Made by a program: the position numbers and the translations under genes
In this document: in pieces, positions 38,665-41,033 of the stretch
Layout of the letters: each line of letters starts with the position of its first letter
Numbering within the stretch: the stretch's first letter is position 1
The notes under the pieces: model-generated
Told to the model about the DNA's origin: nothing
Seen by the model: only the letters and a program-made list of their open reading frames with translations
The model's database searches: none
Sequence record: PX880103.1
Length of the DNA stretch: 64,000 nucleotides
Reading direction: 5' to 3' (one strand)
From: a phage

Positions 38665-38751
38665 TTAAAATCCTTGAAATAATTTATCGGTTGGTTATTA
38701 ATTATTTATTACTTTGTTATTATCCGTAACAGCATTCTCTATGTGATTCAA

Positions 38752-38780
38752 ACTAAAAAGCCCCAACCTTTCGGTCGGGG
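38752..38780 (-). terminator. rho-independent terminator downstream of tRNA region
   Basis: Minus strand CCCCGACC-GAAA-GGTTGGGG followed by CTTTTTAGTTT. Confidence 0.55.
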
Positions 38781-39098
38781 CTAAGCCTTGCGGCAACCTT
38801 GTCGGGGTTCCACCTGCTAAGGCAAGTGTTTGTACGAAACGCCGGGATTCGAACCCGGTTATTAAGCAGTTGACGCTACTCAATATTTTTAAAAGGCCAT
38901 ATCTCGACCATATCCGAACGTTCCGTCAAAAACGCTACTCGGCTTACGGCAAAGATATTTCCTCGAATCGATAATTCTGTGCGCCGTTTCTGCTGTGATG
39001 TAAGGGGACATTAACAGATCGTAAAGATTTGATAATGTCAGTCCTTACTCAGGGAACATCAGTCCGACGACTTACCGGTAGCGACCCGGTTTCTTGTT

Positions 39099-39257: not shown

Positions 39258-39344
39258 TGGTGGGGAGTGATGGAGTCGAACCACCCGAGTCGCAATGACA
39301 ATGGATTTACAGTCCACACCGCTACCTCTACGGGATAACTCCCC
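39258..39344 (-). tRNA. tRNA-Tyr: tRNA-Tyr (anticodon GTA), long variable arm
   Basis: Hand-folded: acceptor GGGGAGT/ACTCCCC, anticodon loop CTGTAAA, long variable arm, T-loop TTCGACT, encoded CCA. Confidence 0.65.
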
Positions 39345-39436: not shown

Positions 39437-39919
39437 TTATTTTATGTAATATTTATTTAAAAACTTTCTAGCTTGAGTATGGCTAACATTTATAGCGTTT
39501 GCATAATTTTTAATAAAACCTCGTTCATCCATATTAAAATTTTCTAATATTTTTAATCGTCTAGTTATCTCATCTTGACTTAAGGTACTTGCATTATTTT
39601 TAGAAATTTTTTCTAAGGACTGTGCCGAGTGTTTTCGACCATTAAAATTAAAATTTTTAGATTTTGGAGGAAATCTAGCATTTAATCTCGCATCTTTTGT
39701 ATTTTGATTATTAGTTGCGCAATATATGTTATTTAATGAATATGGTCCTTTATCGCCGAAACGGCACATGCAGTATTCATGACCCTTTCTTCCACGCTTA
39801 TCATAATTTCCCGTTGATTTCCACCAATGCAACCATTCATCAAAAGTTAAATTCCATTCAATGTTTCTACGTATAGCAGAATTCCGCTGAGAAATATATT
39901 TTGCATAATCTTCTTTCAT
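39437..39919 (-). CDS. endonuclease-like protein inside the tRNA cluster (degenerate HNH_3-like, with C-terminal DNA-binding-like region)
   Basis: 160 aa from ATG; segment GHEYCMCRFGDKGPYSLNNIYCATNNQN loosely resembles HNH_3 core (H..DGN..NN...NL..T..N); basic C-terminus. Confidence 0.4.
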   Translation of the reverse strand: MKEDYAKYISQRNSAIRRNIEWNLTFDEWLHWWKSTGNYDKRGRKGHEYCMCRFGDKGPYSLNNIYCATNNQNTKDARLNARFPPKSKNFNFNGRKHSAQSLEKISKNNASTLSQDEITRRLKILENFNMDERGFIKNYANAINVSHTQARKFLNKYYIK

Positions 39920-39966
39920 CACAAATTTCTCTACTTATTCAATACACTGAGCTAAATCAGCAAAAC

Positions 39967-40314: not shown

Positions 40315-40923
40315 TTATTTATTACGTGAAAAAGACTGTTCTATCAATTCTGGACACTTTCGTTCTATCCATTTTCTAGCTTTTTGTGGGCTTATACCTA
40401 TTATTTTAGCAGCTTTACTAACCCATCCAAATTTAGAATAATCGATTTTAACTAATTCTTCGTAAATTTCATCAGTTAAAATCTTTTCATTAATATTTAC
40501 CAGTAAATGATATAATTTATTATCATTAGCAATTTTAATGAATCTTTTATAGTTTCCGCCTTTACTTAAACCTAATGAAGTAATTGCAGATGATATAGTA
40601 GCCGAATTTAATAGCGCGTTTAAAATTTCTTCATCACTAACATTATAACGCTTTTTATTATTTTTAATATTTTTACCAGCAAAAGTATCAGTTTGCGAAT
40701 GGCAGTTTGGACATAATAATCTTAAATTAGATTTAAGATGATTTTTGTTATTTCCATCAATATGGTCTAATTGCAGAACAATATGCTTATTTTGCCATTT
40801 TGAAATTTTACAAATTGCACACTCATATGGAAAAATATTTTCTTTTATTATTTTGTCTTTCAGCTTTCCTGTACTAAAATTTGGATGTTTTCCTTCAAAA
40901 ATTTCAGCTAATTTAGTATCCAT
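40315..40923 (-). CDS. free-standing HNH homing endonuclease
   Basis: HNH motif CAICKISKWQNKHIVLQLDHIDGNNKNHLKSNLRLLCPNCHSQTD; ends 6 nt from tRNA-Leu; ATG start at 40923 (track start is TTG). Confidence 0.75.
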   Translation of the reverse strand: MDTKLAEIFEGKHPNFSTGKLKDKIIKENIFPYECAICKISKWQNKHIVLQLDHIDGNNKNHLKSNLRLLCPNCHSQTDTFAGKNIKNNKKRYNVSDEEILNALLNSATISSAITSLGLSKGGNYKRFIKIANDNKLYHLLVNINEKILTDEIYEELVKIDYSKFGWVSKAAKIIGISPQKARKWIERKCPELIEQSFSRNK

Positions 40924-41033
40924 AATATAATTCCCAATTATTAACAAAGGCTCTCAAACAAGAACCCTTGATGATAGAGGGTATTAATCAGTGCGGTATG
41001 AGTTAATAATAACAAATAATTCTTAAAGCATAT

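Follow-up and report, generated by a model that had tools for sequence, protein, structure and literature searches.

The tRNA-like domain of tmRNA, the 3' tRNA-like structures of plant viruses and the bacterial Y-RNA-like YrlA RNAs all combine an acceptor/T-arm mimic with modules that are not derived from tRNA. Phage T4 carries two small RNA genes next to its tRNAs, rnaC (species 1 RNA or band C) and rnaD (species 2 RNA or band D), and species 1 RNA was reportedly found to be processed by RNase P in work of the 1970s-80s. In the T4 record NC_000866, which we used as the annotation reference, rnaD (71053-71171) stands directly after tRNA-Arg and is labelled "small, stable RNA; species 2 RNA", and rnaC (70908-71046) follows 6 nt further as "species 1 RNA". 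Both RNAs accumulate late, and RNAC, the one that was probed by northern blot, is a stable, late-accumulating RNA of about 140 nt in T4 (PMC9697503). The roles of both have been stated as unknown (PMC3014915), and a convergent SNP in rnaD has been described in a T4-like phage adapting to a semi-permissive host (PMC12685909).

The gene pair described below is therefore already known from T4, where rnaC and rnaD are textbook features, and finding it is not new. The value of the comparison lies in annotation that is missing from Shigella phage pSs-1 and most Tequatrovirus records, in the missing Rfam families, in a tRNA-like fold of rnaC backed by covariation, and in the modularity of rnaC and rnaD. 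A tested structure with natural variants eases the design of mutational and defence-system screens.

rnaD and rnaC at the end of a tRNA cluster

The window, by which we mean the whole 64,000-nt stretch of phage DNA analysed here (sequence record PX880103.1), belongs to Tequatrovirus according to megablast, and its minus strand carries a cluster of eight tRNAs called by ARAGORN and confirmed by Rfam. Between the end of tRNA-Arg (39099, minus strand) and the terminator stem (38782..38759) lies a non-coding stretch of about 316 nt, in line with the roughly 300 nt given in the earlier note. pSs-1 is 100% identical over this stretch, and about 800 phage records match it, some of them annotated with rnaC or rnaD. 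Alignment to T4 showed the region to be orthologous to rnaD plus rnaC, with the same order and strand after tRNA-Arg, which bears out the earlier suggestion of a counterpart to the species 1 and species 2 RNAs of T4.

The window rnaC is identical to T4 rnaC at 137 of 139 positions over its full length, and its strand, its place after tRNA-Arg and rnaD and its terminator context are all shared. Of the two substitutions, one falls in an unpaired bulge and the other turns a U-A pair of arm 2 into U.G; nothing functionally distinct sets the two copies apart. The window rnaD starts 2 nt past the CCA of tRNA-Arg, immediately 3' of that gene as in T4, and its 5' half and 3' end are identical to the T4 copy, whereas towards the apex of its long hairpin it has another sequence variant, which folds into a hairpin all the same. 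The ends of both RNAs in this phage are transferred from the T4 annotation (Table 1).

Table 1. Features of the rnaD-rnaC region, in window coordinates
Feature	Position	Strand	Basis or remark
rnaD (T4 species 2 RNA) ortholog, about 120 nt	39097..38978	minus	T4 alignment; ends inferred from T4 annotation
rnaD-rnaC spacer, 6 nt, GAAUUA	38977..38972	minus	equals the 6-nt gap between the T4 features
rnaC (T4 species 1 RNA) ortholog, 139 nt, tRNA-like four-way junction	38971..38833	minus	T4 homology, covariance model, covariation
rnaC acceptor-like stem, 5' strand, CGAUUCG, RNA positions 2-8	38970..38964	minus	pairs with 38841..38835
rnaC arm 1, long, segmented 70-nt hairpin where a tRNA has its D-arm, RNA positions 9-78	38963..38894	minus	covariation
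rnaC arm-1 apical loop, UUGACG	38929..38924	minus	complementary to arm-2 loop
rnaC arm 2, 10-bp stem with 6-nt loop, RNA positions 87-112	38885..38860	minus	covariation
rnaC arm-2 loop, CGUCAA	38875..38870	minus	complementary to arm-1 loop
rnaC T-arm, CCGGG UUCGAAU CCCGG	38858..38842	minus	pattern and covariation
rnaC acceptor-like stem, 3' strand, CGUUUCG, RNA positions 131-137	38841..38835	minus	directly 3' of T-stem
Conserved 3' trailer with small hairpins	38832..38783	minus	folding z-score and conservation
Intrinsic terminator, 10-bp stem, GAAA loop, U run	38782..38753	minus	hairpin; annotated terminator in phage G9062

The perfect T-arm (CCGGG-TTCGAAT-CCCGG) that had first drawn attention to the stretch lies within rnaC; the motif is as reported, but the range then given, 38837-38858 (minus), includes 5 surplus bases at the 3' side. 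A chance match is excluded, because the window contains 7 copies of the T-loop core GGTTCRANTCC where shuffles predict 0.19, and the other six matches all lie inside called tRNA genes of the same minus-strand cluster.

Taken together, we are confident that the stretch holds this phage's copies of rnaD and rnaC at the 3' end of the minus-strand tRNA cluster, with a trailer and an intrinsic terminator behind them, and that rnaC, which contains the T-arm, adopts a tRNA-like four-way junction with complementary arm loops; co-transcription, tRNA-type excision and stability conferred by the fold would be part of the same picture.

The two RNAs are separable modules with different phylogenetic distributions, because some genera carry one alone. 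RB69 and other Mosigviruses have both rnaC and rnaD, and Karam-, Kanagawa-, Winkler- and Moonviruses have rnaC without rnaD. In KaAlpha (Karamvirus) and Kc304 (Winklervirus), rnaC has tRNA genes as its immediate neighbours on both sides, the kind of position that a tRNA would occupy. The reverse case is Dhakavirus CLBP2, in which rnaD, trailer and terminator are kept and rnaC is precisely absent, with no match to R1, the rnaC covariance model described below. In Kanagawavirus phages of Enterobacter, rnaC retains 84-87% identity while its flanks are no longer alignable.

Homologs of rnaC were obtained with an exact-pattern scan of a viral collection. The gapped pattern TTCGAGGAN{95,125}CCNGGCGTTYCGT, applied to metagenome and genome contigs, gave mostly chance matches in G+C-rich genomes among the matches listed; nhmmer on these gapped-pattern matches identified four as real, again among the matches listed, all on T4-like contigs (L041, L072, L080 and L101). 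In the bacterial and archaeal genome set, the same pattern followed by nhmmer yielded no real rnaC homolog among the matches listed, a result from a pattern that is too permissive and that leaves room for cellular homologs. A blastn search with rnaC against 5,426 complete E. coli genomes returned no match, and on these two results a host homolog was set aside as a reading.

The tRNA-like fold of rnaC and its comparative support

Single-sequence folding of rnaC gave a minimum free energy of -50.2 kcal/mol (z = -4.55), and RNAfold predicted a shared architecture in nine divergent homologs. The earlier note had found no acceptor or anticodon stem around the T-arm. This holds locally, since the partner strand lies 130 nt upstream, at the 5' end of rnaC; it does not hold for the RNA as a whole, in which that strand closes a 7-bp acceptor-like stem made of 5 Watson-Crick pairs and 2 U.U pairs in mid-stem. 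Between the two acceptor strands lie arm 1, an 8-nt A/U-rich linker, arm 2 and the T-arm. Behind the 3' acceptor strand come U and A and then, encoded in the genome, CAA in place of the CCA of a tRNA, and this CAA is found at the same position in every rnaC homolog; the annotated 3' end of T4 rnaC corresponds to the discriminator-like position. The topology is that of a cloverleaf without a D-arm and without an anticodon loop.

The likeness to a canonical tRNA (RF00005) thus consists in the cloverleaf, in the 7-bp acceptor-type stem beside a 5-bp T-stem with a UUCGAAU loop, and in the site within a tRNA cluster. In contrast to a tRNA, rnaC is 139 nt long, has no 7-nt anticodon loop and no D-arm, carries two U.U pairs in the acceptor stem and an 8-nt linker, and has CAA rather than CCA in the DNA. 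Searched with RF00005, the interval 38790-39098 gave no match even at E<=10, and ARAGORN made no call there. The outcome that software would fold the stretch into a canonical tRNA was likewise not obtained, the tRNA-Sec model reaching 16.6 bits against a gathering score of 47. ARAGORN called no tmRNA, and the Rfam tmRNA_permuted model scored 10.1 bits against a gathering score of 47. Over the whole window, the 8 tRNAs and nothing else passed at gathering score, and the covariance-model check proposed earlier accordingly returned no family for the region at gathering score and none that was credible at E<=10. Canonical tRNA, tmRNA and Y-RNA-like RNA were rejected as identities on these grounds, the absence of an ARAGORN call and of a significant Rfam match. 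In contrast to tmRNA, plant-virus tRNA-like structures and YrlA, rnaC has no significant Rfam match, no YrlA match, no tag ORF and no G3.U70. Rfam 15 appears to hold neither an rnaC nor an rnaD family.

To compare the fold, 26 distinct sequences of rnaC were assembled, which span at least seven genera of Tevenvirinae; the sources were Tequatrovirus, Mosigvirus, Karamvirus, Kanagawavirus, Winklervirus, Moonvirus, unclassified Klebsiella and Enterobacter phages and metagenomic contigs. From a simple MAFFT alignment, RNAalifold derived the cloverleaf, with compensatory changes in 17 of 37 pairs. Arm 1 occurs in two sequence types that share the same fold and are mutually non-alignable by MAFFT, and the covariance model R1 was for this reason built from the 20 T4-type sequences, after which all 26 were aligned to it; the window rnaC scores 166.5 bits with R1. 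In the R1-fitted alignment, which is biased towards the structure of the model (R1 has no part in the MAFFT-only result or in the single-sequence folds), 97.6% of cells are standard pairs, compared with 38-46% when partners are slid by 1-3 columns, changes on both sides occur in 30 of 51 pairs, and none of 500 shuffles reaches any observed measure.

The compensatory changes extend over all parts of the cloverleaf. Both the acceptor-like stem and the T-stem contain a compensatory pair: 11 sequences have A-U and 15 have G-C as the third acceptor pair, and the middle pair of the T-stem is G-C in 13, U-A in 12 and A-U in 1. The two U.U pairs of the acceptor stem are invariant. In arm 1, 19 of the 22 pairs of the outer and apical helices 3 and 4 are compensatory, and helix 2, the three basal pairs, shows no variation; in arm 2, the figure is 8 of 10 stem pairs. 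The complementarity of the loops UUGACG and CGUCAA is perfect in 26/26 sequences, and one clade of 4 sequences has UUGGCG/CGCCAA, an A-U to G-C exchange. On the strength of this one compensatory event in one clade, a contact between the arm-1 and arm-2 loops may be put forward as a candidate.

The T-loop itself is more variable. In the CIP9-like Kanagawaviruses and Winklervirus Kc304 (L003, L016, L019) it reads UGCAUGC or UGCAUUC in place of UUCGAAU, and the stem is kept, so T-loop-specific recognition is not universal. Within Kanagawavirus, CIP9 (L003) and PEi20 (L005) are near-identical just 3' of rnaC, yet carry different, non-alignable arm-1 types, a sequence pattern that would imply recombination inside the rnaC gene.

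rnaD is a structured RNA separate from rnaC. It is built from two hairpins, the first at the 5' end with a 5-bp stem and the 7-nt loop GUCGCUA, the second long and irregular, and folds with z = -3.4. Of the 23 pairs in the consensus fold, 5 show compensatory changes, and the closing pair of the 5' hairpin covaries between A-U, G-C and G.U. In the 21 distinct sequences compared, the 5' half and the 3' end hardly vary, and the apical 45-50 nt exist in at least four unrelated sequence versions, each of which forms a hairpin; identity to one T4 record (H216) is 86.9%, with the differences concentrated in the apical part of the long hairpin. This apical part (window 38998-39050, minus; compared in L001, L006, L275 and L276) behaves like an exchangeable cassette. 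On the plus strand, a terminator-like match at 39074-39090 coincides with the rnaD 5' hairpin read from the opposite strand plus a T-rich run, and is probably not a real terminator.

Proposed processing, possible roles and competing readings

We propose that rnaC and rnaD would be co-transcribed with the tRNAs up to the terminator, and that host tRNA-processing enzymes would excise rnaC by way of its acceptor/T-arm minihelix, a proposal made because this minihelix resembles an RNase P substrate. RNase P would cut at the 5' end, the 3' end would be trimmed down to the discriminator position, and the compact fold would then account for a stable RNA.

Our preferred guess for what such an RNA does, and a weakly supported one, is that rnaC, as a non-decoding mimic of tRNA, engages a host or phage factor that binds tRNA. 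The main rival to the mimic is a purely cis-acting role, in which rnaC and rnaD are processing and stability modules alone, a tRNA-like punctuation and a 3' protective structure with no function in trans. The location of both RNAs at the 3' end of a tRNA operon fits such a role, as do the acceptor/T-arm minihelix, which is a classic RNase P determinant, the position of Karamvirus rnaC between tRNAs, and 50 years in which no function was found. Against it, covariation keeps arm 1, arm 2 and the complementary loops well beyond what a minihelix needs, the RNAs accumulate stably in T4 (PMC9697503), Dhakavirus retains the operon end without rnaC, and the convergent rnaD SNP arose in adaptation to a semi-permissive host (PMC12685909). 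We regard a role confined to cis as possible but unlikely. The mimic can also be stated in a stronger form, in which rnaC is a dedicated non-decoding tRNA mimic, its minihelix locked by the loop-loop contact; it would be kept across at least seven genera of Tevenvirinae, and its target in trans would be a tRNA-binding factor. It might, for example, be a sponge or decoy that draws off a host defence nuclease directed at tRNAs, or an enzyme that processes or modifies tRNAs. rnaD would then be an independent host-specific module, a part suggested by the hypervariability of its apical cassette and by the convergent adaptive SNP in a T4-like phage. Taken with all its parts, this proposal is improbable.

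A different acceptor partner for the T-arm was also considered, the internal segment ACGGAACG (38926..38919), which would form an 8-bp stem and leave a tRNA-Sec-like molecule of about 93 nt. Rfam's weak tRNA-Sec alignment pairs the strands in this way, and the pairing is perfect in the T4-type sequences, with 89.9% of cells paired overall, but there are zero compensatory changes, half of the sequences (13 of 26) break the fourth pair, 500 of 500 shuffles reach or exceed the observed values, and the segment already belongs to the covariation-supported arm-1 hairpin. Such a molecule is very improbable, and the pairing of positions 46-53 with 131-138 was rejected as the acceptor of the main fold, having no covariation and doing no better than shuffles.

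The earlier note had also offered a decayed tRNA, which would make the T-arm the remnant of a pseudogene drifting without function. The site within a tRNA cluster, the silence of the tRNA finders, the weak tRNA-Sec match (16.6 bits) and the label 'tRNA-OTHER ???' in one GenBank record are what such a remnant might leave. A pseudogene would, however, lose its pairing, and the compensatory changes in 30/51 pairs keep the fold; the near-identity to T4 (137/139), the 84-87% identity in Kanagawavirus phages despite flanks that do not align, the presence in further genera and the stable RNA seen by northern blot in T4 (PMC9697503) all count against decay, which we consider highly implausible.

Equally hard to credit is that the stretch encodes small proteins, as the hypothetical proteins annotated here in many GenBank records and two minus-strand ORFs of 40 aa (38889..39011) and 61 aa (38698..38883, TTG start) might suggest, given that the 61-aa ORF crosses the intrinsic terminator, substitutions track base-pairing and not codons, close relatives differ by 1-nt indels in the linker (138, 139 and 140 nt), and the curated records of T4, RB3, ATK47/48 and T2L annotate RNAs at this stretch. 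The stretch is unannotated in pSs-1, and most Tequatrovirus records either leave it unannotated or carry spurious hypothetical proteins there.

Trailer, terminator and neighbouring genes

The trailer contains the hairpin CACUUGC/GCAGGUG and others, and trailer plus terminator fold with z = -4.1. The trailer, including AGCAGGUGGAACCCCGACAAGGUU, is strongly conserved, also in Dhakavirus CLBP2, which has no rnaC, and could be a processing site. The terminator would close the transcription unit of the tRNAs and small RNAs. Between 38700 and 41200 there is no match to the T4 late-promoter consensus (TATAAATA), and one MotA-box-like site stands at about 41032.

Among the eight tRNAs, tRNA-Tyr (window 39258-39344, minus) scores 30.2 bits with the Rfam tRNA model, for which the gathering score is 29, and the other seven score 59-74 bits. 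tRNA-Gln and tRNA-Thr are absent from the window. A 161-aa ORF without a Pfam match (39437-39922, minus) separates two tRNA subclusters at the place where T4 has the homing endonuclease segB. Directly upstream of tRNA-Leu lies a 210-aa ORF (40315-40947, minus), where T4 and G9062 have tRNA-Gln; it matched HNH at 17.2 bits, short of the cut-off of 21.4. Pfam searches of the neighbouring and inserted ORFs gave nothing over the cut-offs. This arrangement suggests mobile endonuclease traffic reshaping the tRNA cluster.

Two further differences among relatives concern the borders of the small-RNA genes. Directly before rnaD, where the window has only 2 nt, RB69 (L274, 62-406), KMB38, HY01 and CHD94UKE2 (also L276, L277 and L278) have an annotated ORF; that of RB69, behind tRNA-Arg, is 345 nt long, RB69ORF150c-like and without a Pfam match. 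Just past the terminator, at about 38755 in the window, an insertion of 555 bp is present in many relatives (e.g. phage G9062, L002, 1547-2141) and missing here. It holds a 157-aa ORF with no Pfam match between duplicated 40-nt copies of the terminator that are 95% identical, and the start region of this ORF is 74% identical to the start of the next gene, so that the insertion looks like a diverged tandem paralog module.
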